Shown piece by piece: positions 17,201 through 54,364 of a DNA stretch of 64,000 nucleotides. Under the pieces are notes generated by a model. The model saw nothing but the letters and a program-made list of their open reading frames with translations. It searched no databases and was not told where the DNA came from. A program made the translations under genes and the position numbers. How positions within the stretch are numbered: the first letter of the stretch is position 1; each line of letters starts with the position of its first letter. Source of the stretch: a virus; UHGV virus genome UHGV-1372088. The stretch is one strand, 5' to 3'.

Positions 17201-20200
17201 AACCAACGCCAACGTTTCGAAGAAAGCTGACTCGTCCGCTGTAGCGACAATCCAGAGCACGGTAACGCAGCAGGGCAAGGACATTGCATCCTCCGCGTCC
17301 GACATCTCATCGCTGAAGAATAGTCTCGCCACAACGGACAGCAACGTCGCGAAGAAGGCGGACGCCTCAGCACTGCAAACTCTGCAAAACACGGTAACAC
17401 AGCAGGGTAAAGATCTGACCAGCGTTGGCAATCGTGCAACGGCGCTGGAGAACAGCCTCAAAACGACGAACGACAATGTTGCGACCAAGGCCGATGCCTC
17501 CGCGCTGTCAACGCTTCAGAATACCGTATCACAGCACGGTGATTCCATTGCGTCTCAGAGCGACTCAATAACCAGTCTGAAAAACAGCGTCGGTTCTTTG
17601 GTTAACATGGGCGACAATCTGGTTCAGGACTCCAGCTTTGACAACGGCGGGCAAACGTTCAGGACTCAGCAAAATTCTGGAACATCTGGAAGTATTGTTG
17701 CGTTTGGCGCGTTTGGTGAAAACTCGGCCGGTGTGCGTATGGTTAAAGTCAACGGTACGTCGCCTGGTCTGTTCGCTAACGGCAAACTGCCAGTTCCGGT
17801 AAATGGCGCGAGAAAATACCGTTACATTGTTCGCGCGAAGGGTGTTTCCGGGGCAATGAATATGCTGCTGCGCCGCTGGAATTTTAACGGCAATACGGAA
17901 GGGGCGTATGAAGACAAGAACAATACGCTGACAACCGACTGGCAAACCATCACCTGGGACACATCCTTCTCGCCGAAAGACGGCGTTGACGGTCAGTCCT
18001 TTGGCATCTACTGCCATCCGAACAATGGCGAGATCTGGATTGATTCATTCCAGGTGTTCGACATTACCGATGCGACCAACAATGAGACGACGGCCAGCGC
18101 GTTAAGCAATCTGTCGACGACCGTTTCCAGGCAGGGTGAAACCGTCACCTCTCAGGGTACGGCGATCACCAAGTTGCAGAATGACCTCAGCTCCACCAAG
18201 ACCGATCTGGCTAAGAAAGCGGATGCATCGGCGCTTCAGACACTGCAAAGCACCGTGACCGATCAGGGTAAGACGCTGACCAGCCAGGGTGATGCGATCA
18301 CGGCGCTGAATAACACCGTTAATACGGTGAAAGGTGATGTGGCAAAGAAAGCCGACTCCTCTGCGCTTCAGAATCTTCAGAGCACCGTAACACAGCAGGG
18401 TAAAGACATCTCCACCAATGCCAGCAACATCACGGCGCTGACTGGAAACCTTGCCACCACAAACGCTGCCGTCGCAACGAAAGCTGATGCTTCTGCGTTG
18501 AACAACCTCACAACGAGAGTGACCCAGAACGAGAAGAACATCTCTTCTCAAAGTGACGCCGTAACGAAGCTGTCCAACACGGTAAGCAACATCGCGGTAG
18601 GTAGCGCAAACCTGATTCCGAACTCCGGCACAATGGAGGGATGGTCTGACGTCATTAGCGACACCTATCGTGGCAACAAGGTCTTCTCGTTCACGAGAAA
18701 AGCCAACAGCTCAAGCTACGTTCAGTCGAACGAGATTGTGCTGGCCGGCCCGGTGGACTCCGACAGCTACGTCTACAGCTTCTGGGCGAAAGCCGCGAAG
18801 GATGGCACTGTCATCAACGCCTACTTCTACAACCCAAGCAACACGACCGGTTCTGAAACAAGCCAGGGTGTTAAGGGTAGCAGTTCTGATGGCTCTGCGG
18901 CGATCACACTGACCACCTCATGGGCGCGTTATTGGGTTAAGTGGACTCATTCTCCGACAACCGGAACGAAGCGCTTCATTCCGGCGCGACTGAACAATTC
19001 CTCAACTGCCGACCAGACTGTCTTCATCAGCTCGCCGCAGCTGGAAACCGGCAACGTCGTAACCGACTGGAAAGCGGCAGACAGTGATTTCGCCTCAGCC
19101 TCCGCGCTCAGTACGCTGACCAGCCGTGTAACCTCGGATGAAGGCGTTATTTCATCTCAGGGTTCGGCAATCGCCGATCTGAAAAACAGTCTGGCGACAA
19201 CAAACTCGACCGTTGCAACAAAGGCGGACGCTTCAGCGTTGAGTTCGCTTCAGAACACCGTAACCAAGCAGGGTACGGACCTGAAGTCGGCGTCTGATTC
19301 CATCACGACGCTGAAGAACAGCATCGCGGCGACTGATGCCAATGTTGCCAAGAAAGCGGACGCATCCGCTCTCCAGACGCTCCAGAGCACCGTCTCTACG
19401 CAAGGGGATAAGATTGCCAGTCAGGGTAATTCTATCACCAGCCTGGGCAACTCACTGGACACCGTGAAGGGCGATGTTGCGAAGAAGGCGGACACTACGG
19501 CTTTGAATAACCTTTCTACTCGGGTTAGCAATGCCGAAGATAAGATCAGCAGCAGCAGTGACGCCATCACTTCGCTGAACAGCTCGCTGAATCAGCAGTC
19601 TAAGCGCGGCGCAAACATCCTGCCAGACGGGACGTTCGAGAGCTATTCGAGCGGGTACAATATCACCAATGGTCGCGTCATCGTGACTGCTGACGATTCT
19701 CACGGCGGAAACAAATGCATCCGTGTGACACGTCCGAACGACTACACTAATTATACAGATAACAGTGACAACCACATCTTCAGCGGCTTCCAGGTTCGCG
19801 ACAACGCGGTATTCTATGTTGAGTGCTGGGTTAAGCTGGACGCCAAGAGCACGACGATGGATGGCTCGGTGCAGATTGCGGTCGGCATGTCGTTGCAGTA
19901 TCAGGATAACTCCTGGCAGTGGCCGGCACTCATTAAGTCGGCAAAAGATCTGTCCGCAGACACCTGGACGAAAGTCAGTGGCTATCTGAAGAGCAGCAAG
20001 AGCGGTATCAAACAGGCGATGGTGCGGATCTCCATACCAAACGTATCGACTGTTAAGGCGGGTAACTCCTTCCTCGTCGATGATTTTGTCATTACCGACG
20101 TGACAGACGCCTATAATGCCCAGCAGACGGCTGATGCCACTGCGAGCGCGGTATCAACGCTTCAGACGACTGTGTCCAGGCAGGGCGACAGCATCACCTC

Positions 20201-23200
20201 GCAGGGCGACAGCATCACAACCCTGAATAATGGCCTGGCCACGGCGAACAAAGCCATTGGCACCAAGGCTGATGCCTCCGCGCTGTCATCGCTGCAAAAC
20301 ACCGTTACCCAGCAGGGTGAAGACGTTGCTGCCAACACCAACAATATCACTGCGCTGTCAAATCAGGTTGTCAACGGCAAGCAGGACACTTGGGCTCGCC
20401 GCATCTACAAGTGCCAGCTTGCCAACGCCGGCACCGAACCGACGTTTAGCGACATTCAGGGGCTTTCCCCGGTATTTATGGATGAAGTGGCCGACGCAGC
20501 CAGGATGGACTTCTCTGGCGCCGGATCGTATGTAGTCGCGCATTACAAGGCGATGGTTCGTGTTGCTGCGGATACCACCATCTCTGTGTCGCCTGGCTCT
20601 CGTGTGTTTGATGACTCCGGTGCGGTGTATGTGAATGGTGTTCGTCAGGCTGCTGCGTTGTCTGGAACAGCTGTACTCAATTTCACACTGTCCGCCGGCT
20701 GGAATACTGTAGAGTTTCTGGTTAACCAGTGGACCGGTAATGCCTATGTCAATCTGGGCTTCAAGCTGGGCGACAAGGTTGCCGAGCTGTATTCTGGTCT
20801 GGGCGTCTCTTCACTGTCTTCGGCGCTGAACTCGATCAGCTCCAACGTCAGCAAGGTGGGTGATCAGGTTTCCAGCAACAGCACGGCGATCACCTCTCTG
20901 AAGAACGGCCTGAGCGATACCAACTCTACCGTTGCGAAGAAAGCGGACGCTTCGGCTCTTCAGACGCTGCAAAACACGGTTACTCAGCAAGGTAAGGATA
21001 TTGCAAGCCAAAGCGACAGTGTTACGAATCTCAGCAACGCACTAAGTAACGTTTCTATTGGTGGCGTCAACCTGATCAAAAACTCAGGCGACATGGCCGG
21101 GTGGTCTGGTAAAACCAATGAAATCTTCCGTGGCAATGCGGTGATTAGCGCGACTACTAAAGCGGGCAGTTCCTACCGAGATCTCAAGGAGATTACTCTC
21201 GACGCTCCAGTCGACAATGCAGAGTACGTTTACAGTTTCTTTGCAAAAGGCGGTGAGAACGGCCAGAGCATGACCGCTTACTTCTACAATCCTAACTCGA
21301 CGATATCTAGTGTTAGTAGCCAGGGTGTGTCAGGCGGTGATGTCGATGGTCGTATGTCATTCACTTTGACAACTGAGTGGGTTCGTTATTGGGTTAAGTG
21401 GAAGCAGAAGCCGGGAACTGGATCTAAGAGACTAATCCTTGCTCGCATCCAAGCATCTTCGACGAAAGATCAGACCGTCTCTATCACCAGCCCTAAGCTG
21501 GAAGTTGGCAATATGCCTACAGAGTGGTCTCCGGCGCCGAGCGATATGGCATCGTCTAACGATCTGTCATCGCTGAAGACTACGGTTGACGCGAATAGCG
21601 GCGCTATTCAGTCTGTAACCTCTCGCGTCCAGAAAACTGAAGACAATATCTCCACGCAGAATACCGCGATCACTAAGCTTCAGGGTGATTTGTCGACCAC
21701 CAACAATCTGTTTTCCACGAAGGCTGATTCCACCGCGCTTCAGACGCTGTCAGGTCGCGTCGATAAGACGGAGTCCAGCATCAGCACCCAGAACGATGCA
21801 ATAACCAAGCTGAACAGCAGCCTTGATACCACAAATAAAGCTGTGGCTAAAAAGGCGGAGCAGTCGTCTCTCGATACGCTGAGCGGCCGGGTATCCAGCA
21901 CTGAAAATGGGATCACGGCGGCGAACTCCAGCATCACGTCTCTGAATGCGGCTATTCGCGCAGAGAACGCGAGCAGTGGGGATTTGATTACTAACCCTAC
22001 ATTTGACCCTCAGTACGCTCAGATGGGCTTTACCGTCGTCACAACCGACACAGATGGTGTTCCAGCAAACTGTCCATTCAGATATGCGGCTAAACTTGCG
22101 TCCCGTGACCATCATCCGAACTTCAACGCCATCGTTGCAACATTGGGCGATGTGTTTGAGATTTCGGTGCTGGTGGCGTGCGGCGCTGGGAATGCTGACT
22201 TTAACCTCTATCTTTGCACAGCAAACGGCCCAACTGGTGGGATAGGTGCCCCGCTTTATAATGGCGGAAATACCAAAGCTACAAGCACCTGGACTCGCGT
22301 AACATGGAAGTTCACTGTTAGCCAGGCAATGGTTGACAAAGGCTACATTCGTCCGTTCCTGCAAATCAACCAGTCTTCACCGTTCGGTACGATCTGGTAC
22401 GTCACTGACTGGCATATGCGCAACATCACTGCGGCATCAAAGGCGCAGGATACGGCGAATGCCACCTCTAAGGCGGTCGATTCTCTGACGTCCACGGTGA
22501 ACCAACAGGGCAGCGATATTTCCTCGATCGGCTCTCGTACAACGTCGCTTGAGAATGGTCTTAGCACCACAAACGCCAACGTTTCGAAGAAGGCTGATTC
22601 TTCTGCGCTTCAGACGCTACAGAACTCGGTAACACAGCAAGGCAATGACATTTCTGGCCAAGGTTCTCGCGTAACGTCTCTGGAAAATAACCTGACGGCC
22701 GGAGCAAACCTCATTCCTAACCCAGCGATGCTTAACGGCGCTCAGGGTTGGGGTGGTTCTGAGACAACTGTTGATGGTTACGCGGCGGTCGTCAGCAGCT
22801 CAGGCTGGGGACCATCGTCGTCCTACTTCCAAGTGACGCCAGGCGACATTATCGATTTGAGCCTGATGAGCCAGAGCGCGGGCGCAGCATCCATCTCATG
22901 GGGACTCCGCTTCGACGGCCCTGGACTGAGCAATTTCTGTCTCTACGCCCCTGCGTTGACCTTCGCGGCTGGCGAGAAGAAGAGTGTATCTGCGGCTATT
23001 ACCGTACCTGCTGGCGCAACAAAGGCGATGTTCCAGGCAAGCGCTAGGGCGACTTCCGCACGTACCGTATATAACATCATTGCTACCCGCCGTGATGCTG
23101 GAACCAAAGCCAACAGCTCTGCGATTGATACGTTGAACAGCACCGTCAAAACGCAAGGTGACACGCTTAGCTCGATCGGAAGTCGTACAACTTCGCTGGA

Positions 23201-26200
23201 AAATGGGCTGAGTAGCGCTAACAGCGCTCTCTCACTGAAAGCGGACGCGTCGGCACTGTCATCGCTGACAAATACAGTGACCCAACAAGGCAAGGATCTG
23301 GATGCAGCAGAAGCCAATATAACTGCGGCGAACACCAGCATCACCTCCATGCAGGCGTCTCTGACTCGTCGCACTGTATTTACGGTAACGGCGAAAGGCA
23401 ACGGTAACAGCGCTAATCACGGTTTCTTTGATGAGTCAGGTAAAAATCTGTTTACGCCTGGTCGCAGCTATGCGCTGATCACGTTTAAAGCGAATAGCGA
23501 CGGCTCGACGGTCATTAATACCAGCAAAACCTATGACGTTTTTGGCTCTGCCAACAACGGGAAGGCGATGTCTGACGATATTGCGGCTCTGGCTAATGGC
23601 GTTTACGTTTGCGTGATGACTTATGACGAGCCGTCGGGTCAGCGTAACTCGATTGCATCTGCCTTAGAGTTGCTCGGTGGCACAACTGAAGTTATTAACT
23701 CTCTGCCATATCGCGGCGCGTACATTCTCCTTGGCCGTAAAGGCATGAAGGCCGGCGACGGTCTGGAGTTACGCGCACCTACAGGTGGTGACTCCAGCGC
23801 ATTTATTTCCACGTCCGTTGAGTTTGTGAACGGGGTAATGATGGGGTTGGGCGCCGCCGGCGGTGTGATGATGAAGGCGGATGCGAACGCCAGTGCAATC
23901 ACCACTCTGCAAAACACCGTTAAGCAGCAGGGCGACACTATCGCTTCGAGCAGTAGTGCCATCACCTCTCTGCAAAACGACATGAGGACGGTTAATGACA
24001 ATGTCTCTAAAAAGGCAGATGCATCGGCGCTTCAGACTTTGCAGAACACGGTAACGCAGCAGGGTAAAGATATCTCTACCCAAAGCGCGTCGCTGACGCA
24101 GCTCAATAACAGCCTCAGCGCGACGAATGCCAGCATCGATGCGTCGGGCAAGATCCCTGGGAACCTGATCGTCAACTCGTCATTCGAGCGCGATAAAGAT
24201 GGCTACACCGGCTGGAGCTCTATCGCCTCCGTCATCGCAGCGTCGGTGCCACACTCAGGAAGTAAAATCCTCAAGCTGGCTGCCGGCGGATCTGTGTTAG
24301 TCGGGCAGGACGTTACCTATCTGAAGGGTCGCACCTATAAAATCGGCGCATGGGCTAAGCAGGATTCAGGCACCGTTATTCAGGCTGCGGACAACACGAA
24401 GTTCCGTATCGCGGATAGCACAGGTTTGCTGGCTAGTAGTGTTTACGGTCCTTTCACGTCAAACTGGCAGGAGATTAGCTTCACCTGGAGGCCGGGTAAA
24501 GATGTGACAGCGGCGACACAGATCACCGCCTACCTGTCCGCCGGTGCGATGTATTTCGACGACTTCTACGTTATCGACATCACCGACCGCGTCGATCTGG
24601 ATGCCACGGTGTCTGCGGTTTCCGGTCTGACGACGAGAGTGTCCAATGCTGAAGGGAATATTTCTTCCCAATCCGACAGCATCACCACTCTGAACAACGG
24701 TCTTAGCACTCTGAACAAGACGGTCAGCACCAAGGCCGATGCCACGGCGCTGTCTTCACTTCAGAATACCGTGACGCAGCAGGGCAAGGATATTTCGTCG
24801 GCGAGCGGAAGCATCACCAGCCTTCAGAGCAGCCTGAATACGATCAAGGTTCAGAGCAACCCTTGGATTGACGGTACGTTTGAAACCTATGACAACAATC
24901 AGCAGCTGGGCGGCAGCACTGCGATTGTAACGACGGACTTCAAGAACAGCGGCAACAAATGTCTGAAGGTTACTCGCCCAGCCAATACCAGCGGGAATTC
25001 CGACAAGACGATCGGCTCCTATTCTGCGGTGCGCCAGAGCGCGAAATATCGCGTTGAGTTTTGGGCTATGATGCCGGCAAGTGAAGCCCCGCCGTCTGGC
25101 TGGACTGTGGTCGTTGGTCTGCACTCCATCAACAAAGATGGTGGGAATGACTGGCAGGGCATTGCGTTCGACGAGGCTGGTCTTGGCGGTCGCGACCAGT
25201 GGGTTAAGTTTACTGGTGTAGTGAAAGTGAGTCCGAGCGTTACCCGTAGCCATGTATGGATTTCTACTCGTGGTCAGAGTGGCTCCAACACACCTGGATA
25301 CGCGGTGTACATTGATGATTTCGTCATTACCGATATCACTGATGCTGCGGATGCACAGGCTACGGCGGATGCGAACGCAACAGCAATCTCATCGTTGCAG
25401 ACGAAGGTCAGCGATATCGATGGGAAAGTGACTGCCCAAACGTCGCAACTGTCTTCCATGCAGTCGAAGGTAGATGCGTCTTCTTCGAAAGTGGATCAGC
25501 TGTCTAAGACCATTTCGGACAGTCAGAGCACTCAGGCATCGTTGAACACCAGTCTTCAGTCTCAGATTGATGCCCAGGCTTCGGCCAACATCAAAAACCA
25601 GGCTGATCTGAACTCGGCGGCCACGAGCATTGCGACCATTAAGTCTACGCAGTCCACACAGGCTACGCAGCTTAGCGCAATTGCCAAGCAGCAAACCGAT
25701 ATGACGGCATCGCTGGACAATCAGTCGGCATCTATTCAGACGCTTCAGGAGTCTGTCGCGAACAACGATTCTCTGAAGAGCACCTGGATGGTGAAGATGG
25801 AGACGAACAGCGCCGGCCAGAAATATGCAGCGGGTATCGCGCTGGGTGTGGATGGGAAGAGCCAGCAAAGCCAGTTCTTGGTTCAGGCAGATCGCTTCGC
25901 GCTGATTAATACCAGCAACGGCAATACGACGACACCGTTTGTGATCGATAACGGTGTGACGTACATGAATGCCGCTTACATCAAAGATGGGGCGATCACG
26001 AACGCGAAAATTGGTGGTGAGATTAGGTCTGACAACTTCGTAGACGGATCTCAGGGCTGGCGTGTCGGAAAGGATGGTTCTTCTCAGTTCCACAACGTCG
26101 TTGTCCGAGGACATGTTGAGGCCAACAGTGGATCGTTCAGAGGCGCTGTTTATGCTACTGACGGTTGGTTCCAGGGCACCGTATACGCGAACCGTATTGA

Positions 26201-26729
26201 GGGCGACATTGGTTCCTTCGCCATCAACATCGCACAGCACCGCACGCGTAAAGTGCCGAAGGCGACATGGCAATGGTTCGAGCTGGCCAGATTCCGTCGC
26301 CAGAGCTTCGACCAGGTGATCAACATTCGCGGCGGTCTATTGCAGACCGACAGCATCACCATCGACGGCGGCGCGAAACTCCGGGCGGGTATGTCGTATT
26401 CTTCCGGCGCAGATGGAGGCCTTAATCCAGGATTCCTGTCACACGCCATGTTGTTGCGTGCCACTGGCGCAACTTCTGGCGGCGGCAGCATGGAGATCGG
26501 CATTGAGCTTATGTACGAAACAGGTGGGTGGGACCGCCTGCTGACGGCACAAGGGGAGATGAACGTCGACAATATGTCGTTTGTTGTTCCAGCTGGCAGT
26601 GGGGATGCAGTTCTTCGTTATGGTTGTTATCTTGACCGTAACGGGCAAATGGTATTAACCATCCTTTCACGATTCGACGCTTTTTCGGCGCGGAATAACA
26701 ATGTAATTCGTGGATCGTCCACACCGTAA
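11217..26729 (+). CDS. giant central tail fibre / host specificity protein (lambda J-like N- and C-termini with about 10 inserted beta-sandwich + repeat-stalk modules)
   Basis: Uninterrupted 15.5-kb ORF (5170 aa); N-terminus resembles lambda gpJ; dozens of about 35-aa repeats (ADASALQTLQNTVTQQGKDI...SLNNSL.TTN.NVAKK); about 10 beta-rich domains each ending ..DDF.ViTDvTDA; C-terminus ADRFALINTS... J-like. Confidence 0.85.
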   Translation: MEQFKKRKLPEIIAGAGGKKSSGSSRTPVEADDTVNSNVKVSILDLLGEGVIGGLKDGAKSIFLNDLPLQNSDDTYNHSGVTWWFRDGSQDQSIIEGFDYTETPKTIGLQVKKTSAVTMAVDSDSADRFRVILKFPSLKSVDKKTGDTSGTSVTYKFQVSSAGGAFVDVAPEGESSGTVTLTAKKAGVYYRSYILNLPKPGSKYQVRVVRVTDDNKDTTYLANDIYVDTVGEIINTNMNYPNSALVGLRVNSEQFGSSMPSRSYLISGMKIRVPSNYDEVTNEYRGTWDGSFKLMSSSNPAWILYDLVTNKRYGLGEFVRESMFDLGQLYQIGRYCDALVDDGFGGKEKRFAINTQITTLQDAYRCVQDIAGAFRGMVYWAGGMVHVTQDSPSDPIAIYSNSNVIDGRFSYKGSARKDRPSVALITYNNKEDNYKQNIEYVEDLEAIERYGIRKTESVAFGCTSRGMAHRVGLWTLYTGRMESDVITFQTGMDSAFLVPGDVILIHDKFRAGRRNSGRVVASTANSITLDSTVDMTKAGTITFINAEGRMISRDILESGVVSKVTFKDAVNEADRPVADGIWVISQSDLKPLQARVVGVTQGEDGVGSTITCIQNNPSKYAAIDDGAVLIPQNTTVLDPTFSKPENLKITEGTYLSSPGNLNVSLTATWEGKSAEYWVSWRRSDAGNVSNWQTAKVNEEQFEVKPVAESGKYDFQVYGVSVSGRKTEILSTTYQVLGTMTPPGAPSSLTAVGDYRQIILGWSNPSSVDLDHIQIYASKTNDVTKATLLAKSTTTNFTHSGLEDSVTWYYWIRSANKRGMTSDWSSKLGTSAMTRDVLSFLQNKITESELAKDLLADIDSKAVAAEVDASIEDAKSEATAQVEAAKKEASSALSAAQVTLNNAINQEATDRNNAVADEAKQRSQAISAEADARTKAISDEAIARADAITKESDTRTRAMADEVTARNKAVADEAAARTKAVSDEAVARAKAVSDEVAARTKAVADEATARAKAISDEAAARATAISDSVAVEATARAKAIADSASSLSDKIEKEVTDRVKAVSDLDTKTANAISSESSSRIAAISDEAKTRADAILQEKNSRQAEIKNVSAQMQTANESLAQQISQVAAGTGEQFDSLKIWYFDAQTTEGWSGNKSAILSADGWIRSGNGVDAWLTSPAGLAIAGASYRFMKMRIRKVGNPVWEGAIRWITKSGDSFNNTNFITVSEPEYNAQGVATLTASDIKWNNDTVHQIRLDLSISTDDSNYIEVDWIAVGRPTPGAGMAALQDEKTARTNADAAEAASRSTLATQLRGSYDGTDITKLSSGLIFQEQQARVTADKVEATARQSLETKVNDSVSSINKSLDTLNTKDQAMASDITGLKSSLDDKADASAVQTLKATVEQQGSNISTQGQSITKLQGDLNTTNTNVGKKADQTAMTALQGTVTQQGKDIAAANSSISTLKSSLDTTNDAVAKKADATAVSDLSSRVSATEGSVSSQGDSIVQLNNSLSNALADSDASAKTPNNLIVNPSFERGMDGYIGASSLSTVVTVQIPHVGTKALKIDPGSSVSPGQYIDFVKGRTYEIGVWVKQVSGTTDNGQGNNKLRVGNSAGAPVFEVPFANLTIDWTKVSKRWKATETGSLPVTLSNYLTAGNRYFDDFYVIDVTDAVNIDASASAISSLQSTVTQQGKDISSQSTSIAGLNNSLNTTNENVAKKADSSAVQTLQNTVTQQGKDISAANSDITNLKGSLDATNDKVATKADASAMSDLASRVSQNEKGIATQSDSLTKLSNKVSSIDVGGVNLITNGDMSAAPVSLLSTTTSFKSFDRTVTADVRGMSVVTPRSITLSVWFKELSSGFGTTKPFTSVVIGKSAAGDNWGVRFYASNGSVSQKGDMFVWTGTINLKAGDTLFNDPTTIRFILEDKTQKTGAIFYRVKLENGNIATDWSASPDEVKSGLDANASALNALTTRVASTEGNVESQGNSITSLKNDLATTNANVSKKADSSAVATIQSTVTQQGKDIASSASDISSLKNSLATTDSNVAKKADASALQTLQNTVTQQGKDLTSVGNRATALENSLKTTNDNVATKADASALSTLQNTVSQHGDSIASQSDSITSLKNSVGSLVNMGDNLVQDSSFDNGGQTFRTQQNSGTSGSIVAFGAFGENSAGVRMVKVNGTSPGLFANGKLPVPVNGARKYRYIVRAKGVSGAMNMLLRRWNFNGNTEGAYEDKNNTLTTDWQTITWDTSFSPKDGVDGQSFGIYCHPNNGEIWIDSFQVFDITDATNNETTASALSNLSTTVSRQGETVTSQGTAITKLQNDLSSTKTDLAKKADASALQTLQSTVTDQGKTLTSQGDAITALNNTVNTVKGDVAKKADSSALQNLQSTVTQQGKDISTNASNITALTGNLATTNAAVATKADASALNNLTTRVTQNEKNISSQSDAVTKLSNTVSNIAVGSANLIPNSGTMEGWSDVISDTYRGNKVFSFTRKANSSSYVQSNEIVLAGPVDSDSYVYSFWAKAAKDGTVINAYFYNPSNTTGSETSQGVKGSSSDGSAAITLTTSWARYWVKWTHSPTTGTKRFIPARLNNSSTADQTVFISSPQLETGNVVTDWKAADSDFASASALSTLTSRVTSDEGVISSQGSAIADLKNSLATTNSTVATKADASALSSLQNTVTKQGTDLKSASDSITTLKNSIAATDANVAKKADASALQTLQSTVSTQGDKIASQGNSITSLGNSLDTVKGDVAKKADTTALNNLSTRVSNAEDKISSSSDAITSLNSSLNQQSKRGANILPDGTFESYSSGYNITNGRVIVTADDSHGGNKCIRVTRPNDYTNYTDNSDNHIFSGFQVRDNAVFYVECWVKLDAKSTTMDGSVQIAVGMSLQYQDNSWQWPALIKSAKDLSADTWTKVSGYLKSSKSGIKQAMVRISIPNVSTVKAGNSFLVDDFVITDVTDAYNAQQTADATASAVSTLQTTVSRQGDSITSQGDSITTLNNGLATANKAIGTKADASALSSLQNTVTQQGEDVAANTNNITALSNQVVNGKQDTWARRIYKCQLANAGTEPTFSDIQGLSPVFMDEVADAARMDFSGAGSYVVAHYKAMVRVAADTTISVSPGSRVFDDSGAVYVNGVRQAAALSGTAVLNFTLSAGWNTVEFLVNQWTGNAYVNLGFKLGDKVAELYSGLGVSSLSSALNSISSNVSKVGDQVSSNSTAITSLKNGLSDTNSTVAKKADASALQTLQNTVTQQGKDIASQSDSVTNLSNALSNVSIGGVNLIKNSGDMAGWSGKTNEIFRGNAVISATTKAGSSYRDLKEITLDAPVDNAEYVYSFFAKGGENGQSMTAYFYNPNSTISSVSSQGVSGGDVDGRMSFTLTTEWVRYWVKWKQKPGTGSKRLILARIQASSTKDQTVSITSPKLEVGNMPTEWSPAPSDMASSNDLSSLKTTVDANSGAIQSVTSRVQKTEDNISTQNTAITKLQGDLSTTNNLFSTKADSTALQTLSGRVDKTESSISTQNDAITKLNSSLDTTNKAVAKKAEQSSLDTLSGRVSSTENGITAANSSITSLNAAIRAENASSGDLITNPTFDPQYAQMGFTVVTTDTDGVPANCPFRYAAKLASRDHHPNFNAIVATLGDVFEISVLVACGAGNADFNLYLCTANGPTGGIGAPLYNGGNTKATSTWTRVTWKFTVSQAMVDKGYIRPFLQINQSSPFGTIWYVTDWHMRNITAASKAQDTANATSKAVDSLTSTVNQQGSDISSIGSRTTSLENGLSTTNANVSKKADSSALQTLQNSVTQQGNDISGQGSRVTSLENNLTAGANLIPNPAMLNGAQGWGGSETTVDGYAAVVSSSGWGPSSSYFQVTPGDIIDLSLMSQSAGAASISWGLRFDGPGLSNFCLYAPALTFAAGEKKSVSAAITVPAGATKAMFQASARATSARTVYNIIATRRDAGTKANSSAIDTLNSTVKTQGDTLSSIGSRTTSLENGLSSANSALSLKADASALSSLTNTVTQQGKDLDAAEANITAANTSITSMQASLTRRTVFTVTAKGNGNSANHGFFDESGKNLFTPGRSYALITFKANSDGSTVINTSKTYDVFGSANNGKAMSDDIAALANGVYVCVMTYDEPSGQRNSIASALELLGGTTEVINSLPYRGAYILLGRKGMKAGDGLELRAPTGGDSSAFISTSVEFVNGVMMGLGAAGGVMMKADANASAITTLQNTVKQQGDTIASSSSAITSLQNDMRTVNDNVSKKADASALQTLQNTVTQQGKDISTQSASLTQLNNSLSATNASIDASGKIPGNLIVNSSFERDKDGYTGWSSIASVIAASVPHSGSKILKLAAGGSVLVGQDVTYLKGRTYKIGAWAKQDSGTVIQAADNTKFRIADSTGLLASSVYGPFTSNWQEISFTWRPGKDVTAATQITAYLSAGAMYFDDFYVIDITDRVDLDATVSAVSGLTTRVSNAEGNISSQSDSITTLNNGLSTLNKTVSTKADATALSSLQNTVTQQGKDISSASGSITSLQSSLNTIKVQSNPWIDGTFETYDNNQQLGGSTAIVTTDFKNSGNKCLKVTRPANTSGNSDKTIGSYSAVRQSAKYRVEFWAMMPASEAPPSGWTVVVGLHSINKDGGNDWQGIAFDEAGLGGRDQWVKFTGVVKVSPSVTRSHVWISTRGQSGSNTPGYAVYIDDFVITDITDAADAQATADANATAISSLQTKVSDIDGKVTAQTSQLSSMQSKVDASSSKVDQLSKTISDSQSTQASLNTSLQSQIDAQASANIKNQADLNSAATSIATIKSTQSTQATQLSAIAKQQTDMTASLDNQSASIQTLQESVANNDSLKSTWMVKMETNSAGQKYAAGIALGVDGKSQQSQFLVQADRFALINTSNGNTTTPFVIDNGVTYMNAAYIKDGAITNAKIGGEIRSDNFVDGSQGWRVGKDGSSQFHNVVVRGHVEANSGSFRGAVYATDGWFQGTVYANRIEGDIGSFAINIAQHRTRKVPKATWQWFELARFRRQSFDQVINIRGGLLQTDSITIDGGAKLRAGMSYSSGADGGLNPGFLSHAMLLRATGATSGGGSMEIGIELMYETGGWDRLLTAQGEMNVDNMSFVVPAGSGDAVLRYGCYLDRNGQMVLTILSRFDAFSARNNNVIRGSSTP

Positions 26730-29839: not shown

Positions 29840-30070
29840 GTTAGTTGCAGCCTGATTAATGTCTGCACATCGTCGCAACGTAACGCATTTTGAGACGTTC
29901 TAATCGTTACTGGTACGTTTGCTTATCGACCCTCTCTCCATGCCACCAGCACCCCAATCCCTTCGTTTAAAACGACACCCAAGCCAAGCTATTGCATTTT
30001 ACAGCGAATCGAAAAGCGGCTAGTATTCCCTAAACAAGAAAACAACATGTTTACTAACGAGGCAGTGTAT

Positions 30071-30736
30071 ATGCAAACTACCGTTATAGTTGTTGGTGGA
30101 ACAAAAGGCGGACCGGGCAAATCAACAATCGCCCAGCAAATAGCCGCCTATCTCATCCTGAAAAAGAAAAAAACCGTGTTCATTCTCGACATCGACCCCC
30201 AGATGACGACCGCTCGCTGGTGCGAAGACCGCTCTGAGAATGAAGATTTGACCATCATCCCATTCGCCGCCAAACAGCACGATATCGATCAGACTATCGC
30301 CAGCTTGCGAGGAAGATATGACTTTGTGGTTATCGATGCAGGGGGCTTTGACTCCGACATTCAGCGACATGCTCTGAGACACTCTGACGTCGTTCTTCTG
30401 CCGCTAAGACCGAAACGTCGCGATCTGCGTTCACTTGGCGATGTGGATACCGTTGTCGCGGCAGCCAGAGCGTCTAATCCAGATCTGAAAGCCTACGTCG
30501 TCATGAATCAGTGTCCGTCATTGCCGTCTCAGGCGAAGCGCATTCTGGTGGCGAAGGATGTATGTGAGACGTTTGGTCTGGAAACCACACCGGTCAATCT
30601 TTACAACCGCAACGTGTACGACGATGCAGAGTGGGCGGGGCGTTCCATCTTTGAAGTGACTGGCTCTGAACGTGATCCGAAAGCGGAAGCGGAAATTCAA
30701 GAAGTCACCAATTTTATTCTTTCTGGAGGTAATTAA
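30071..30736 (+). CDS. parA: ParA/Soj-family partition ATPase
   Basis: Deviant Walker A VVGGTKGGPGKST at N-terminus, ParA-like length; followed by small DNA-binding partner gene. ATG 30071 preferred over 30047 (RBS GAGG). Confidence 0.75.
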   Translation: MQTTVIVVGGTKGGPGKSTIAQQIAAYLILKKKKTVFILDIDPQMTTARWCEDRSENEDLTIIPFAAKQHDIDQTIASLRGRYDFVVIDAGGFDSDIQRHALRHSDVVLLPLRPKRRDLRSLGDVDTVVAAARASNPDLKAYVVMNQCPSLPSQAKRILVAKDVCETFGLETTPVNLYNRNVYDDAEWAGRSIFEVTGSERDPKAEAEIQEVTNFILSGGN

Positions 30737-30738
30737 GC

Positions 30739-31179
30739 ATGGCGGACGATTTGAAGAAGGCTGGTGGGTTTGGTGACTTGACAAGCGGTGCTCGTCAATC
30801 GAAGCGCATCGAAGAAGCCGACAAACCGGCTCGCGTATCAAACAAGACCCAAGGCGCTCCACTGAAAGGTAAGACGGCAATCAGAAGTCGCACCATCAGC
30901 CTGGAAGAAGAGTACGTTGAGTTCATGGAAATTCTGGTTAAGCGCCTTCCTGACCTAAGTCTGTCACGATCAGATATCGTCCGTGTTGCACTGGTCGCTC
31001 TCAGCAAGATGAAAGCCGAGAAGCTGAAGTCTGTCATCGAACAGAACCGTTTGACCACCAGCAATGAAGTCGGTCTTCGCATTACCGAACTGGAACGAGA
31101 GTTCGACAAAGCCGAACGAGAAGAGCTGTTGAAGACTATCACGCCGGAAGAGTTGGAAAGGCTAATTGACCGCAGCTGA
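30739..31179 (+). CDS. ParB-like centromere-binding partner
   Basis: 146 aa, Lys/Arg-rich N-terminus, helical C-terminus; immediately downstream of parA and upstream of repeat region. Confidence 0.45.
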   Translation: MADDLKKAGGFGDLTSGARQSKRIEEADKPARVSNKTQGAPLKGKTAIRSRTISLEEEYVEFMEILVKRLPDLSLSRSDIVRVALVALSKMKAEKLKSVIEQNRLTTSNEVGLRITELEREFDKAEREELLKTITPEELERLIDRS

Positions 31180-31196
31180 TTTTGGAAAGCTGGCCT

Positions 31197-31503
31197 ACCC
31201 CTATATGTTTTAAGATCTTTTAAAAGAAAGTTATTAAATATATACAGAGCTAGGCTTTTTAACGCATTCAAAAGGCTTGAAAAGACAACACCCAGATACC
31301 TTTCAGGTACTGGCTGTTAACGTCAAAACCCAGAGTCAAAACCACGGAGTAAGGCATCTGAAAGATGCCTGGCTCCGTTCAGTTAAAGACGGTTCTGGGG
31401 TACTTGTTTTAAGTCAAAGCCCAGCCTTTTCTTCCTTCAAAAAGACCTAGCTCTGTATATCTTTTAATACTTTCTTTTAAAGTCTTTAAAAACATATAGG
31501 GGT
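31197..31503. repeat. about 55-bp imperfect inverted repeats flanking a 190-bp core with GTCAAAACC iterons and a GGCATCTGAAAGATGCC hairpin (candidate parS and/or ori)
   Basis: Left arm CCCCTATATGTTTTAAGATCTTTTAAAAGAAAG...CAGAGCTAGG and its reverse complement at 31447-31503; direct repeats AGTCAAAACC x2 plus a variant; non-coding. Confidence 0.6.
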
Positions 31504-31634
31504 ATTCGACGTTCACCCCAGACCTCAAAAAGAAGCCGCCAAAGAACCTACATTTCCCACTTTTAAAAATCACGCAGCCACATTACACTTGGCACAATTG
31601 TAAGTATGTAAGTGTATACATAGGCATCATAAAA

Positions 31635-32357
31635 ATGATAAAGCTGCACATGGCGCTGGATTTCGAAAAGTACGACATTCTGGAGACGATGGATACCGCG
31701 ACAATGGACTTGTGGGTATCCCAGCACGTCGGTCTTTCCCGATGCAAGGCTGAATCGTCGCTGTACACCAGTAAGTGGTTCGACTACCGCACCATGCACC
31801 CTCTTGTGGCCACCTGTCTTTTTACCGAAGTGTATAAGCTCAAACACTCCCAGATTACCCGTACCCACGGAAGAGAGGATCTGGTGAAAGCCTACTTTAC
31901 CACAGGTTTGAAGAGAGTTTCATACCTTGACATGTCGAAGGCGAACATCACGTCTCTTTGGAAAGCGAGACAGGTGGCGGACAGGTACTGCGTCCCATAC
32001 GACTACTTTGTCGAGACCATCCTCAGCATCGCAGCATCGAGACTATGGGATAAGCTGCCGCGACCGCAGCATATGTGGCAGGAAGATCTCATTGAGATTT
32101 TTGAAGAGAAGATGAAGACGCGCATGAAGACCACCTTCGACGATTCCGATTTCAGCTTCCAGAACGCATCCCAGATTGTCAACCGTGAAATTCAGATGGC
32201 TTATTGCCAGTGGATCATCAACCGCGTGAAGGATATGCCGTCCAGCAAGCGTGTTTACGCTATCGCTAATGTCGCCGTCCTGAATCGCCTCGTGCCGATG
32301 TCCGTCATGCAGAAGTGCTTTCCGGCCGAGTCGGAGAGAGCTCAGGTCTTCTGTTGA
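31635..32357 (+). CDS. hypothetical protein (possible replication initiator by position)
   Basis: 240-aa ORF between repeat region and helicase gene, preceded by promoter-like motif; no recognisable motifs. Confidence 0.45.
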   Translation: MIKLHMALDFEKYDILETMDTATMDLWVSQHVGLSRCKAESSLYTSKWFDYRTMHPLVATCLFTEVYKLKHSQITRTHGREDLVKAYFTTGLKRVSYLDMSKANITSLWKARQVADRYCVPYDYFVETILSIAASRLWDKLPRPQHMWQEDLIEIFEEKMKTRMKTTFDDSDFSFQNASQIVNREIQMAYCQWIINRVKDMPSSKRVYAIANVAVLNRLVPMSVMQKCFPAESERAQVFC

Positions 32358-32422
32358 TGCCCTTGTGTAGTTTGAAATAATTAACCCATGAAACAAGTTG
32401 TTTAGGAAATAAGAGAAAGGAC

Positions 32423-33772
32423 ATGTCAGAAGATACCAGCGTATTGCACACCGGTAAGCCACTGTCTGAAGAGTTTAACGACGACTTTCAGAACCGCCTG
32501 GCCGCCTATTTTTGTCGCGACTTCCAGTTCACCAGCCGCGCCGGTGATTTGGTTGAGCCCGATCAGTTTTCAAGTGCAGCCAACGGCTTTCTGGTAGACC
32601 TGGTCGGTTCGTACTTCAAGATGTACCGCAGCATTCCTTCGACGAAGGTGCTGGTCGAGCTTGTTCTTCAGGCCAACAAAAAGGGTCGCATCCGCGCCGA
32701 GCTCATGCCAGATATTAAGGCGGCGATTGCCCGCTGCATCAAAGAGCCGCTGACGGACACGAATTACATGGTCGATAAGGTGGCCACGTTCGCTCGTTCC
32801 TGTGCTTTCGATGACGCGCTGATCAAAGCCGCCACGCTGAAGGAGAAGGGCGAGTTCGAGAAAGCGATGGTCGTCATGAACAAGGTCAACATGGTTGGCG
32901 CTTCAGGCGCAGACGATGTTTACGATTATCTGGCCCGTGAAGAGGAACGTCTGGCCGCGCGTGACTTTGAAGCGTCGGATGATTACGTGCCAAACTCCAT
33001 CCCGACCGGCGTCCGCATTCTGGATAAGACGCTTTATCAGAAGGGCTGGGGCCGCCGTGAGATGGTTCTGATTATGGGCTTCGCTAAAGCAGGTAAGTCG
33101 ACTGCGATGGGCGAGTTCGCAGTAAACGCAATTCTGGCGGGTTATAACGCGCTCTACGTCTCTCTGGAAGTGCACACATCCATTTTGTCAGACAGGTTCG
33201 ATGCGCGTCTCTCTGAGCTTCCTATGGAGAAATTGACGGAACGACGCGATGAGGTGCATCGGAAGCTACGCGATATCGGCGCGGATGGGAAACTCGGTTC
33301 GCTATGGATTGTCGAGCGTCCGTCTGGTTCCTTCTCTCCGGCAGACCTGGACCGTCTTATCGATAGCATGGGAGCATCCGGGAAGAAGGTCGATATGGTT
33401 GTTGTCGACTATGCCGATCTGATGAGAGCGACGAACCCATCCAAAGACGACCGCGTTGATGTGAAGAACATTTACACCGATCTTCGTGCCGTGTTCGATA
33501 AACATAACGTTGCAGGTATGACTGCTTCGCAGACAAACCGTGACGGTGGAAGTGCAGAAACAGCGACCATGATGCACGCCGCAGACAACATCGAGAAGGT
33601 CCGTATCGCCGACCTGATTATCTCAATCAACAAAACGGAAGAGGAAGCGGAGAAAGGCGAAGCGCGTTTGTTCTTTGCGGGCTCTCGTAACCAGAAAGGC
33701 GGGTTTGCTCTGCGTGTCCAGCAAGATCTGGAGCAAATGCGATTCATTAAGAGCGTGTTAGGCGTCATCTAA
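32423..33772 (+). CDS. DnaB-like replicative DNA helicase
   Basis: 449 aa; C-terminal RecA-fold with Walker A GFAKAGKST and DnaB-like motifs. Confidence 0.7.
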   Translation: MSEDTSVLHTGKPLSEEFNDDFQNRLAAYFCRDFQFTSRAGDLVEPDQFSSAANGFLVDLVGSYFKMYRSIPSTKVLVELVLQANKKGRIRAELMPDIKAAIARCIKEPLTDTNYMVDKVATFARSCAFDDALIKAATLKEKGEFEKAMVVMNKVNMVGASGADDVYDYLAREEERLAARDFEASDDYVPNSIPTGVRILDKTLYQKGWGRREMVLIMGFAKAGKSTAMGEFAVNAILAGYNALYVSLEVHTSILSDRFDARLSELPMEKLTERRDEVHRKLRDIGADGKLGSLWIVERPSGSFSPADLDRLIDSMGASGKKVDMVVVDYADLMRATNPSKDDRVDVKNIYTDLRAVFDKHNVAGMTASQTNRDGGSAETATMMHAADNIEKVRIADLIISINKTEEEAEKGEARLFFAGSRNQKGGFALRVQQDLEQMRFIKSVLGVI

Positions 33773-33808
33773 AAAAAAGGTGCGGGCTGAGGCTACGCAC
33801 CTTATTTC
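33771..33808. terminator. bidirectional-type terminator (A8-hairpin-T-rich)
   Basis: AAAAAAAAGGTGCGGGCTGAGGCTACGCACCTTATTTC. Confidence 0.55.
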
Positions 33809-33903
33809 AGTATCGAAATCAAACTTAACCGGTTTTTTGGAACCGAGAAAATACACATGAGATTAAATCTTACCAAAAGCGCCATTTCTGGCAAGAGGTA
33901 GAT

Positions 33904-35022
33904 ATGTCAGAGCTTCAGGAATTATCGGAAGAGCTGGACTTCGAGCAGTGGCTTGACTCCGAGGGCGTAACGTATCGTCGCGGTTCTGTTTCGTCTCGCG
34001 GTCGAGAGCTGAATATCAAAGAGTGTCCGCACTGCGGCAGCGCCGGCTGGAAACTTTATTTCAACGTAACGACCGGCCTGGGTAAGTGCTTCGCGGGCGA
34101 TCACCCGGAAGACGTTCAGTTTAACAAGCTGACATTCATGAAAAGCCATTTAGGTTGCAACTGGACGCAGCTTAAACAGACGATCAAAGACGAGCTCCGT
34201 CAGCAGGGCTGGAAGCCAAAGACAACCGAAGAAGAGACGCTGGAAAGCAAGCGGGAGCTGGTCAGCGATCTGACGTTGCCATTTCACTACATGCTTCCCA
34301 TCGAGGGCCAGCTGCCAACGTATCTGGTGGGGCGAAACGTGGGCGTCGACCTGACCACGTATTTCGATTTGCGCTACTGCGTGAACGGCCAGCACGTCTA
34401 TCTCGACTATGTGACGAAGAAGCCGAAGATGCAGTGTTTCGATATGCGCATCCTGATCCCCGTCTACAGTCTCGATGGTGAGATGAAGACGTTCCAGGGG
34501 CGTGACGTCACCGGCGTAGCGGAGAAGCGCTATCTCTTCCCCAACGGACTGCCGGCGTCGGGGAAATTTCTCTACAACGGCCACAATGCGATTGGCAAAA
34601 AGACGGTCGTCGTTTGTGAAGGTGTTTTCGATGTCATAGGGGCCAAGCGAGCGCTGGCGACGGAAATATCCATCAGAGAGCTTGTGGAGCCAGTGGGGAC
34701 GTTCGGTATGCACTTGAGTGGAAACGTCCGTGGTGAGGATGAAGACCAGCTGGGGGCGTTTCTGGAGCTCAAAAAGCAGGGGCTGGAAACCGTCGTCATG
34801 ATGTGGGATAGCGAGAAGCAAGCGATACACAACACGTTTGGCGCGGCCAGACGTCTTATTTCGATTGGGTTGAAAGTCAGGATCGCCTGTTTGGGCGAGG
34901 AAGGACTCGACCCAGGCTCAGCAACTAACGAGCAAATCATCCGGGCCTTCTATCGTGCCAAGCAGTACACCAAGGCACTGGAAATGATGGCAATGTTAAA
35001 AGGAATCGAGGCGTTAAAATGA
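33904..35022 (+). CDS. DNA primase (zinc-binding + TOPRIM)
   Basis: CPHCGS...C...H zinc motif near N-terminus; TOPRIM-like VVVCEGVFDV and DxD region; preceded by a 14-codon leader ORF sharing the GAGAAAATACACATG start context. Confidence 0.65.
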   Translation: MSELQELSEELDFEQWLDSEGVTYRRGSVSSRGRELNIKECPHCGSAGWKLYFNVTTGLGKCFAGDHPEDVQFNKLTFMKSHLGCNWTQLKQTIKDELRQQGWKPKTTEEETLESKRELVSDLTLPFHYMLPIEGQLPTYLVGRNVGVDLTTYFDLRYCVNGQHVYLDYVTKKPKMQCFDMRILIPVYSLDGEMKTFQGRDVTGVAEKRYLFPNGLPASGKFLYNGHNAIGKKTVVVCEGVFDVIGAKRALATEISIRELVEPVGTFGMHLSGNVRGEDEDQLGAFLELKKQGLETVVMMWDSEKQAIHNTFGAARRLISIGLKVRIACLGEEGLDPGSATNEQIIRAFYRAKQYTKALEMMAMLKGIEALK

Positions 35023-35834
35023 AAGAGATCAGAGCGTTTGTCGAAAGAGAGGCGAAGTTCGTATTCGCGCACTTGCTTGAAAATAAGGGGATCACCGCGA
35101 AAAGACGACAGACCATCGAAGAGCGAAGCATTGATTACGCGGTCAACTTGCTACCTCGCAAAGAAATTTTTGATGACGTGATAATGATGACGCAACCCGG
35201 ATGCATCGCAGCAGTGAGCATGGCGCGGTTTGGGCCTCACTACCTTGTTGCGCTCTCCGACGACTTCCCTATGACGGCCGAGGCGTCCAAATGTTCATTC
35301 CTGATTGTGTTGATGGAAAGACGAAACAGAGGTCAGTATTTGCCAAAATCAAATACGTCGCTGGTCTTTACTCGTGACGAGTATTCCGACACCGCCTCCA
35401 TGTTTAACGAGTCGATTGATCATTTCAGACCGATCGATGAAAAATTGAGAGGCTTAACTGTAGACAGTGAGATGCCTAGCGTCATCATCGAAAGACCCAA
35501 AGATTTACTGTCTCGTATTGGGACGGAGGATAAGGGGGCGATCGCGGCGAGCATCAATCAGCACATTCACACCGCACTGGATAACGCCTTCTCTGACTTT
35601 GAGCCGGACGCAATGAATATCATCTCTTCAGCCAGTCGATTTGTTGGTGGCATGTTGGGCGAGTATGGCCGGGAGTTCGTTCGCAAGGCAACACATATAG
35701 AAACTCTTCTCGTGCAGACGCGATCCAATCTCGCTGGCCGCGTCGAAGAGCTTATTGCCTCAACCGCATTAGATGAATCAAGGCTGTCGTCCGACAAGCC
35801 ACAAGGCTTTAGCCACCTCTGGGGCATGTTCTAA
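35019..35834 (+). CDS. hypothetical protein
   Basis: 271-aa ORF, start overlaps primase stop (ATGA). Confidence 0.45.
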   Translation: MKEIRAFVEREAKFVFAHLLENKGITAKRRQTIEERSIDYAVNLLPRKEIFDDVIMMTQPGCIAAVSMARFGPHYLVALSDDFPMTAEASKCSFLIVLMERRNRGQYLPKSNTSLVFTRDEYSDTASMFNESIDHFRPIDEKLRGLTVDSEMPSVIIERPKDLLSRIGTEDKGAIAASINQHIHTALDNAFSDFEPDAMNIISSASRFVGGMLGEYGREFVRKATHIETLLVQTRSNLAGRVEELIASTALDESRLSSDKPQGFSHLWGMF

Positions 35835-35913
35835 CCTCAACAATTCACTGCCATGCCGTTGCACTTCGTTTATGATATATGTATAAGTAAGTGCATACAT
35901 AGGTGCAACGAGC

Positions 35914-36357
35914 ATGAGCAAGATAAATATCAGCAAACTTCCTTCAATTTCCAACAACAGCTATTACCTGAAGTGCTCTGCGCCGTCTGCGAACGGCAAA
36001 GATATGGGGTGTAGCTACACGGTATGTCAACACACTGTCATTACGTTTCAGGCCGGAAAACTTAAGGGATTTGATGGTTGTCGCAAGGCGATCGCTGAGC
36101 GCAAATGCAAAGCCGTTGGAATGATGGTCGAGGAAATTAAGTCGGGGGTTCCGATTTACTTCGTCGATAGCGCTGAAGAAATCCGTCTCGTTGAAGAGGA
36201 ACGAGCCAGGTCAAGCATCTTCGCCGCGCGGAAAAAATCGTCTCCGACGTTCGCATCTCGTATCGCCAAAACCGAATCAGTGCCGGCCGCTAAGCCAGCG
36301 GCTCCAATCGTAGATATTTACGCGGAGCTCGTCGCGGCCGAATTGTCCAGTAAATAA
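35914..36357 (+). CDS. hypothetical protein
   Basis: 147-aa ORF after promoter-like TAAGTGCATACATAGG motif. Confidence 0.45.
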   Translation: MSKINISKLPSISNNSYYLKCSAPSANGKDMGCSYTVCQHTVITFQAGKLKGFDGCRKAIAERKCKAVGMMVEEIKSGVPIYFVDSAEEIRLVEEERARSSIFAARKKSSPTFASRIAKTESVPAAKPAAPIVDIYAELVAAELSSK

Positions 36358-36385
36358 GCTGTTTACATAATAAGAGAGAGTACAC

Positions 36386-39822: not shown

Positions 39823-39899
39823 TACCCAATGCGACAAAACGGTAAGTCGAGAGGATGCTGAGTCCGATGATGCAGGTTCGAGTCCTGCTTGGGTGACTT
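39823..39899 (+). tRNA. tRNA-like element (acceptor, U8, D-arm, T-arm GGTTCGAGTCC; anticodon arm defective)
   Basis: TACCCAA/TTGGGTG acceptor pairing, D-stem CGAC/GTCG with GG in loop, T-stem GCAGG/CCTGC; no CCA; possible pseudo-tRNA. Confidence 0.3.
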
Positions 39900-52998: not shown

Positions 52999-53082
52999 AC
53001 AATACAATAAGTAAAGCTGTAAACAATGTAATTAGTAGCGCAGTAAACAAGGTGTTTGCTGCGTCACATGGAGAAAATACAC

Positions 53083-54252: not shown

Positions 54253-54364
54253 CGCAACTACCAAAATCCGCCTTAATTCAGCGCTTTACCCCCTTCCCCA
54301 CTGAGATAAAATCTACCAAACAACGAAACTACTTGTTTGGTAGATAACTCGTAAGGCAGTCAAA

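Follow-up and report, generated by a model that had tools for sequence, protein, structure and literature searches.

The C1 repressor of P1 acts, as a monomer, at many operators spread over a phage-plasmid of about 100 kb, and these operators are asymmetric 17-mers. Control of gene expression can also be exerted on the messenger, and the precedents for the blocking of translation are FljA, acting on fliC mRNA, and RegA, acting on the early mRNAs of phage T4. In this study, we have analyzed a stretch of viral DNA of 64,000 nucleotides (hereafter, the window), in which the 13-bp palindrome AAACAA-N-TTGTTT recurs ahead of selected genes. This palindrome represents a real and conserved family of putative operators which is apparently undescribed: a full-text literature search with the four exact 13-mers returned no match, and no mention of the motif was found there.

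Judged by its identity to known elements, the window is part of a Klebsiella phage-plasmid of the SSU5/pHCM2 type. Positions 30000-36000 are 99.5% identical to the K. pneumoniae plasmids LR890700.1 (110 kb) and CP110757.1 (pINF102.5, 104 kb), the primase gene shares about 73-76% identity with those of Salmonella phage SSU5 and other SSU5-like phage-plasmids, and the helicase-primase DNA, among the best-conserved stretches, is likewise about 73-76% identical across these elements. The annotated genes, nearly all on the + strand, encode phage tail and lysis proteins, ParA, a DnaB-like helicase, primase, ligase, an integrase module, and DNA polymerase. About 800 plasmid records, those of S. Typhi pHCM2-type and Y. 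pestis pMT1 plasmids among them, contain homologues of the backbone proteins. Joining the window to the remaining part of LR890700.1 gave a near-complete genome model of 108,996 bp. Two features of the window lie apart from the motif. A single ORF of 5170 aa (11217-26729), annotated as a phage tail protein, is several-fold longer than its SSU5 counterpart, the alignment of both being limited to the first ~1190 residues. A tRNA gene (39823-39896; Rfam RF00005, 31 bits) lies in otherwise gene-poor surroundings (38.8-40.1 kb), and tRNA genes are found at the equivalent position in SSU5 and in the E. coli element Cyrano.

Searched as AAACAANTTGTTT, the palindrome has three exact matches in the window, against 0.00 expected from 100 dinucleotide-preserving shuffles; allowing up to two mismatches raises the count to 10, where 2.58 would be expected, and no shuffle gave as many as 10. 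The sites discussed here and one associated promoter are the following.

30040-30052: one-mismatch site AAACAACATGTTT in the parA leader, with a direct half-site AAACAAGA ahead of it and 18 nt to the parA ATG (30071)
32354-32381, + strand: predicted helicase-operon promoter from a consensus scan (TTGATG, 16-nt spacer, AATAAT, TG extension)
32391-32403: exact site AAACAAGTTGTTT, 19 nt 5' of the ATG (32423) of the DnaB-like helicase and 9 nt 3' of the sigma70-like promoter (AATAAT)
36352-36364: weak two-mismatch site AAATAAGCTGTTT in the spacer of a predicted promoter (36343-36371), 21 nt 5' of an ATG (36386)
53045-53057: one-mismatch site AAACAAGGTGTTT within a 25-nt palindrome (53039-63)
54314-54344: extended palindrome CTACCAAACAA-N9-TTGTTTGGTAG, containing the one-mismatch site AAACTACTTGTTT (54326-54338)
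59812-59824: exact site AAACAACTTGTTT after a terminator-like hairpin, 11 nt 3' of TACAAT and 18 nt 5' of a small ORF (59843-60076)
62691-62703: exact site AAACAAGTTGTTT, 4 nt 3' of a perfect TATAAT and 18 nt 5' of the ATG of a DUF7740 gene (62722-63123)

The three exact copies lie where a first-pass annotation of this DNA had placed them, its spacings of 20 and 19 nt to the start codon being one base too high for both the helicase site (19 nt) and the 62691 site (18 nt). The variants that it had listed ahead of parA and at 54314-54344 are real, the former with one mismatch and the latter as described, with a one-mismatch canonical site inside. The two sites that it had proposed at 46504-46543 are weak, one having two mismatches and the other more, and they show no conservation in the corresponding region of five further lineages; site 53045 was absent from its list. 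The motif is clearly not as frequent in coding sequence as outside it, the sites being almost all intergenic. The six window sites that have no more than one mismatch (30040, 32391, 53045, 54326, 59812, and 62691) are all intergenic and lie 18-26 nt 5' of start codons on the + strand; with a non-coding share of 6.9% in our own ORF model, this has P ~1e-7. The genome model holds 19 such sites, at least 16 of which are wholly intergenic (non-coding share 9.3%, P ~2e-14), and the one true coding match falls in the final 30 nt of the DHFR gene, 16 nt ahead of the next gene.

Several of these sites have a predicted promoter and an ortholog elsewhere. The helicase site is conserved in the alignment with SSU5, Cyrano, and Buttiauxella, and the -35 and -10 columns of its promoter are conserved in four lineages, the transcription start itself being deduced. 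The site ahead of parA (ParA/MipZ domains), whose predicted promoter (TTTACA-17-TAGTAT, 29998-30026) places TAGTAT 13 nt 5' of it, is exact in three other lineages, again SSU5, Cyrano, and Buttiauxella, by alignment. The SSU5 ortholog of site 59812 lies at 56848, 3' of the homologous lipoprotein gene and its terminator. The extended palindrome 54314-54344 is directly 3' of a predicted promoter (54285-54312) and 20 nt from the ATG of a secreted 101-aa protein; a TAAAAT hexamer lies 13 nt 5' of the site inside it (54326), and the same variant, AAACTACTTGTTT, is present in SSU5 at 81745. Site 53045 sits between two ORFs that jointly match the single DNA polymerase gene of SSU5. As its 25-nt palindrome folds strongly as RNA (-16 kcal/mol, z = -3.9), this site could also act as a hairpin. 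Whether 36352-36364 is a member of the family is uncertain.

Two of these neighborhoods are also of interest in themselves. The DNA polymerase encoded by one gene in SSU5 (SSU5_052) corresponds in this lineage to ORFs 50629-52998 and 53083-54252, separated by an 84-nt gap, of which the second has an HHH_6 match and weak UDG matches; the PLSDB entry of pINF102.5 has no CDS annotated in the stretch 50629-54252. Between ~54.4 and 62.7 kb, the window carries ~3.4 kb more than CP110757.1 (pINF102.5), with exact site 59812 within this surplus DNA, and LR890700.1 covers all of this region and has ~1.3 kb of its own in addition. These gains and losses of length point to indel differences among three near-identical plasmids.

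Relative to -10 boxes, the motif is found in two placements, namely over the transcription start or early leader, and centered near -38 (transcription starts and promoters being predicted, not mapped; promoter-like matches overall show no enrichment over shuffles). The window copies lie 4-13 nt 3' of predicted sigma70-like promoters and directly 5' of the ribosome-binding site. Of the 19 genome-model sites, 8 are followed at exactly 19 nt by a -10-like hexamer, mostly TGnGATAAT (background 1%), and in a block of small genes outside the window seven copies share the form gccgtAAACAASTTGTTTcctgcct-N12-TGnGATAAT. The palindrome center of this class is near -38 of an extended -10 promoter, genuine start codons with a strong Shine-Dalgarno sequence lie 53-68 nt beyond, and several copies follow terminator-like hairpins, thus standing between terminator and -10. 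In SSU5, a -10-like hexamer is found 0-16 nt upstream at 13 of 19 sites (background 17%), at seven of them exactly 13 nt away, and the typical order is GATAAT, 13 nt (aaCaCCAAcAAGA), palindrome, Shine-Dalgarno sequence, and ATG. Three SSU5 promoters carry an extra copy at -38, and in two of these the copies are 51 bp apart and flank GATAAT. The genes for DUF4942, for the MCRKC zinc-finger protein, and for MYKHLNISITL have their site 3' of the -10 in SSU5 and at -38 in this lineage, a change of position between orthologs that fits a steric repressor and does not fit an activator. The fixed spacings could in part derive from the duplication of whole promoter-leader modules, rather than from selection on geometry.

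Direct half-sites with a period of 8 nt often precede the palindrome, as in AAACAAGG AAACAAGG AAACAAGA TGTTT, the corresponding repeat of parA being AAACAAGA AAACAACA TGTTT. Arrays of the motif lie outside the window at 76390-76450 and 82310-82365 of the genome model (L005 ~12926-12986 and ~18846-18901): three sites 24 nt apart precede nrdB, and upstream of a gene for a 265-aa protein there are three direct AAACAAGR half-sites with the 8-nt period, the third being the left arm of one palindrome, with another palindrome at a distance of 24 nt. These arrays suggest that several dimers may bind cooperatively.

The motif is shared well beyond the Klebsiella element. In a blind tally of all 6+6 palindromes, AAACAA-N1-TTGTTT ranks first both in the genome model and in SSU5, where 11 exact and eight one-mismatch sites are present. 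Both elements carry sites at the orthologous genes for parA, the helicase, nrdB, the DUF4942 methyltransferase, terS, and the zinc-finger protein, as well as at the MYKHLNISITL gene, a 160-aa gene, and the gene after the lipoprotein terminator. Cyrano has a site 5' of parA, the helicase gene, the VWA gene, and terS, those of parA and the helicase being exact, and the Buttiauxella plasmid has exact sites 5' of parA and of the helicase gene. An exact copy lies 5' of the VWA gene in Y. pestis pMT1, E. hormaechei, E. fergusonii, and the main-group K. pneumoniae plasmid. In the alignments, the -35, the -10, and the palindrome are conserved, the central base varies freely, and the flanks have diverged. 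The plasmid of Moellerella wisconsensis, the most divergent relative checked, has no exact site, and its three one-mismatch matches are all in coding sequence. The reading of the palindrome as an operator, as put forward in the first-pass annotation, is thus well supported by its intergenic location, its fixed position relative to -10 hexamers, and its conservation at orthologous promoters.

We consider it fairly probable that the motif is the dispersed DNA operator of a single regulator, sequence-specific and probably dimeric, whose gene belongs to the conserved backbone of the SSU5/pHCM2/pMT1-type phage-plasmids; protein binding, repression at the DNA level, and the identity of the protein are what we infer. 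About 20 copies per genome would each serve an individual promoter. Those of the start-overlapping class, to which all window copies belong, would cover the transcription start or the first ~20 transcribed bases, and those of the -38 class, in the small-gene region outside the window, would lie directly 5' of extended -10 promoters. Because a protein bound in either placement would impede RNA polymerase, the motif is best read as a set of repressor operators, through which the regulator would jointly restrain partition, replication, nucleotide metabolism, small early genes, and the terminase operon. In the Cyrano lysogen, the genes just 3' of parA are reported to be expressed (PMC9928086); as the parA operon has a site, any repression would not be absolute.

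The candidates for the regulator differ in where they are encoded and in what accompanies them, and the following features are needed to compare them.

46006-46386, - strand: 126-aa XRE-type helix-turn-helix (HTH) protein with a C-terminal coiled coil, proposed as the binder in the first-pass annotation
46450-46470: element of a second palindrome family, directly after a -10-like TATATT; TAACTAAGTAAGTACATA on the + strand, TATGTACTTACTTA on the strand of the XRE gene
L005:33383-33886, - strand: FljA-like (PF03614) protein, encoded next to the DEAD-box helicase, outside the window; SSU5 homologue at 96900-97424

That 46006-46386 encodes an HTH protein resembling repressors is borne out (PHROG phrog_8, E = 1.5e-7), the Cyrano homologue (CYRAN_45) being annotated as a putative repressor and that of Buttiauxella as XRE family. 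It appears quite unlikely, nevertheless, that this protein binds the AAACAA palindromes as a master lysogeny repressor. Its homologues are spread over 833 plasmid records, which matches the breadth of the phage-plasmid family itself, degenerate half-sites occur upstream of its gene, and the Cyrano homologue is expressed in lysogens (PMC9928086), all of which would suit such a role. Yet the interval from the XRE gene to its divergent partner has no canonical AAACAA site in six lineages, and the XRE promoter has another palindrome instead: in Cyrano, the main-group Klebsiella plasmid, pMT1, E. hormaechei, and E. fergusonii this promoter reads TTTACA-17-TAATAT followed by GGTAAG(C/T)ACTTACC, and in the window TATATT-g-TATGTACTTACTTA, which is related to it. 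The HTH of the window lineage is only 38-46% identical to the others, whereas the 13-mer is identical, and the Moellerella element keeps the protein (40% identity) without any of the sites. The presence in SSU5 of 19 sites (11 exact and eight with one mismatch) and no XRE homologue also speaks against this binder, but weakly, as SSU5 may derive from an element with the module and have lost it, and as 833 plasmids carry the protein; the case is now mainly the different palindrome at its own promoter. On these sequence comparisons, the XRE protein is probably not the binder of the AAACAA motif, and the element at its own promoter, together with the 38-46% identity of the HTH, makes the second palindrome family its likelier target. 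A DNA-binding protein of the enterobacterial host would account for the invariance of the motif across hosts and lineages, the 13-mer being identical in elements of Klebsiella, Salmonella, Escherichia, Yersinia, Enterobacter, and Buttiauxella and absent from that of a Morganellaceae host. We regard this as very unlikely; we know of no enterobacterial regulator with this consensus, those of KdgR, IHF, PhoP, MntR, FNR, and others differing in spacing or sequence. Least probable of all, in our estimation, is that the motif is an activator site or promoter element, or else that it is bound by no protein and was passively carried along as promoter modules were duplicated. The -38 class does resemble class II activator positions, and many small-gene promoters look paralogous; against this, sites 3' of the -10 cannot activate, orthologs move the site across the -10, and the site is conserved while its flanks have diverged.

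A more serious question is whether the site is read on DNA or on RNA. The FljA-like protein might read the 5' leader through its tandem Hfq/Sm-fold domains and block many early mRNAs at the ribosome-binding site, in the manner of the precedents named at the outset, and FljA action is said to be post-transcriptional in the title of a 2006 article by Yamamoto and Kutsukake. We find such a translational operator rather unlikely, the evidence being divided. The copies of the window and of SSU5 adjoin the Shine-Dalgarno region, 12-26 nt ahead of the ATG (16-26 nt for all window copies, a placement that suits a translational operator equally well), a PF03614 protein is encoded in every SSU5-like element, and the model of the FljA-like protein (pLDDT 84, pTM 0.84) shows two tandem domains of one helix plus five strands of the Sm/Hfq type, the best PDB matches all being Hfq. 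We know of no published fold for FljA. The fold in our model is that of an RNA chaperone (Hfq-like), not a classical DNA-binding fold, and this counts against reading the motif as a DNA operator. The Salmonella fliC leader, moreover, contains the palindrome core CAAGTTGT, an 8-nt identity within an aligned 13-mer that ends 16 nt before the ATG, and this core falls within a 10-nt fliC segment missing from the fljB primer sequence (both from primer sequences; PMC3410353, PMC5056187); this is, however, a single 8-mer match with a chance probability of ~0.01 by our own estimate. In this lineage, 8 of 19 sites are at -38 and, being upstream of the -10 and in some cases after terminators, are outside the leader of the regulated gene. 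An exact two-fold symmetry around a free central base is what characterizes sites recognized as double-stranded DNA, and the RNA hairpin of the canonical site is negligible: the 13-mer folds at -2 to -2.6 kcal/mol, with no advantage over shuffles, and strong hairpins are limited to the two extended variants, 53039-63 and 54311-45. An Rfam scan of the window matched only the tRNA, elsewhere, and no family at the motif, so that a structured RNA of a known family was set aside. The weak hairpin, the lack of an Rfam family, the exact reverse-complement halves, and the copies upstream of the -10 together favor a symmetric protein that recognizes double-stranded DNA and would repress by occlusion.

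The FljA-family protein is at present the leading candidate for the binder of the AAACAA palindrome, on circumstantial grounds and unproven. It is a core gene, found in phage-plasmid-sized contigs of Klebsiella, Salmonella, Escherichia, Enterobacter, Citrobacter, and Cronobacter. Its divergence parallels the presence or absence of the motif, since the Moellerella element, which lacks the motif, has only a 17%-identical FljA relative (hhalign probability 96.7%). The protein of the window lineage is 27% identical to the SSU5 copy, though the motif is unchanged. A search of viral contigs with a single-sequence pattern found no FljA-like relatives. We put forward only tentatively, as a possibility, that the FljA family comprises tandem Hfq/Sm-fold regulators that ancestrally exerted global phage-plasmid control via ~20 sites on DNA, mRNA leaders, or both. 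If so, Salmonella FljA and the fliC leader site (CAAGTTGT) would be a domesticated single-target offshoot, and the plasmid copies of FljA might also touch host fliC. Next to the gene for the FljA-like protein, between it and a 223-aa gene and outside the window, a non-coding gap of 365 nt (genome model 96482-96846) contains conserved direct repeats (CGGAATATATTAA twice, GGGAATTTATT, and AAATATATAAGGGT) which are shared with SSU5 (96575-96896); an origin, an iteron region, or a promoter region may lie here.

Other proteins were considered as binders, and several of them were set aside. The 88-aa protein encoded just 5' of terS resembles the PadR/MarR winged helices (pLDDT 92), has 67-77% identity between lineages, and possesses an invariant recognition helix; its status as a prime candidate was dropped, as the Moellerella element has the identical helix and no sites. 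In the ribbon-helix-helix-like 93-aa protein encoded next to the DEAD-box helicase, whose Cyrano homologue (CYRAN_117) is expressed in lysogens, the predicted DNA-facing strand varies (IACQVKL, IHCQVQL, TYCQVAL) in three lineages that share the identical motif. The ribbon-helix-helix-like partner of ParA (146 aa) has an identity of only 34% with its SSU5 counterpart, and the Moellerella element has retained it. The 320-aa 'regulator' (55308-56270) is a gp32-like protein that binds single-stranded DNA, rather than a regulator acting at specific sites. Two ParB_N proteins are further candidates; their ParB, Noc, and KorB matches are confined to the N-terminal CTPase domain, and both proteins persist in the motif-free Moellerella element at 47-65% identity. 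Pfam searches with ten further small conserved proteins were uninformative.

The second palindrome family is itself dispersed and intergenic. It consists of TATGTA-N6-TACATA and TATGTA-N2-TACATA, with a consensus of about TAtGTAAGTGyaTACATA, and its window copies (~14-18 nt each) lie at 2541, 9082, 28299, 31605, 35884, 38841, and 41720, as well as at 46450, 47003, 49121, 54710, 55205, 58687, and 62602. They are often found after terminators, overlapping a -10-like TACATA, and also ahead of structural and lysis genes. The half-sites are lineage-specific, being TAAGTA/TAGGTA (GGTAAGYACTTACC) in SSU5, Cyrano, and Moellerella, and a copy stands at the XRE-gene promoter in every lineage checked; a similar sequence occurs in the divergent DEAD-helicase/ParB promoter. 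This family is probably the operator of another regulator, which is possibly the XRE protein. The module 44994-46946, made up of the integrase (+), the XRE repressor (-), and a small divergent ORF (+), lies directly 5' of the VWA gene, a position conserved in Cyrano, pMT1, Enterobacter, E. fergusonii, Buttiauxella, and Moellerella; it is found in 833 plasmid records and is absent from SSU5.

SSU5-like phage-plasmids are common in clinical Enterobacterales, and their lysis-lysogeny and copy-number control is essentially uncharacterized. The AAACAA motif would define a testable regulon that includes partition, the replicative helicase, nucleotide metabolism, the terminase operon, and small early genes, and it narrows the search for a master regulator to a few backbone proteins. 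Binding by the FljA-like protein would provide a function for a family known only from flagellar phase variation. The existence of two operator families suggests that two separate regulatory circuits operate in these elements.

Several known systems may be compared with the one proposed here. The integrase, XRE repressor, and small divergent gene of the 44994-46946 module recall the CI/Cro arrangement of lambda, but the AAACAA palindromes are not concentrated there, and the conserved palindromes of this module belong to the other family. The FljA/fliC pair shares with our system a homologous protein, here a core gene, and a fliC target located between promoter and ribosome-binding site, as are the window copies. 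Only one FljA target is known, however, and the protein is said to act on mRNA, whereas ~20 sites are present here, many of them outside leaders. With P1 C1, the likeness would lie in a single repressor, as proposed here, with dispersed operators that overlap promoters at varying positions and with targets that include a DnaB-type helicase, a methylase, replication genes, and late-regulator genes; unlike the C1 operators, the site is a symmetric 13-mer, C1 has a different fold, and no C1 homologue was seen. KorB of RK2/IncP differs in the sequence of its motif and in its distal long-range class, which is not evident here. Its OB site, TTTAGCSGCTAAA, is likewise a 13-bp palindrome with a free or S center in at least 12 copies per replicon, one class being centered at about -39/-40 by the promoter, and it serves the global coordination of partition and replication genes. 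In kind, the AAACAA motif would thus be a dispersed repressor operator, as are the operators of P1 C1 or the OB sites of RK2 KorB.
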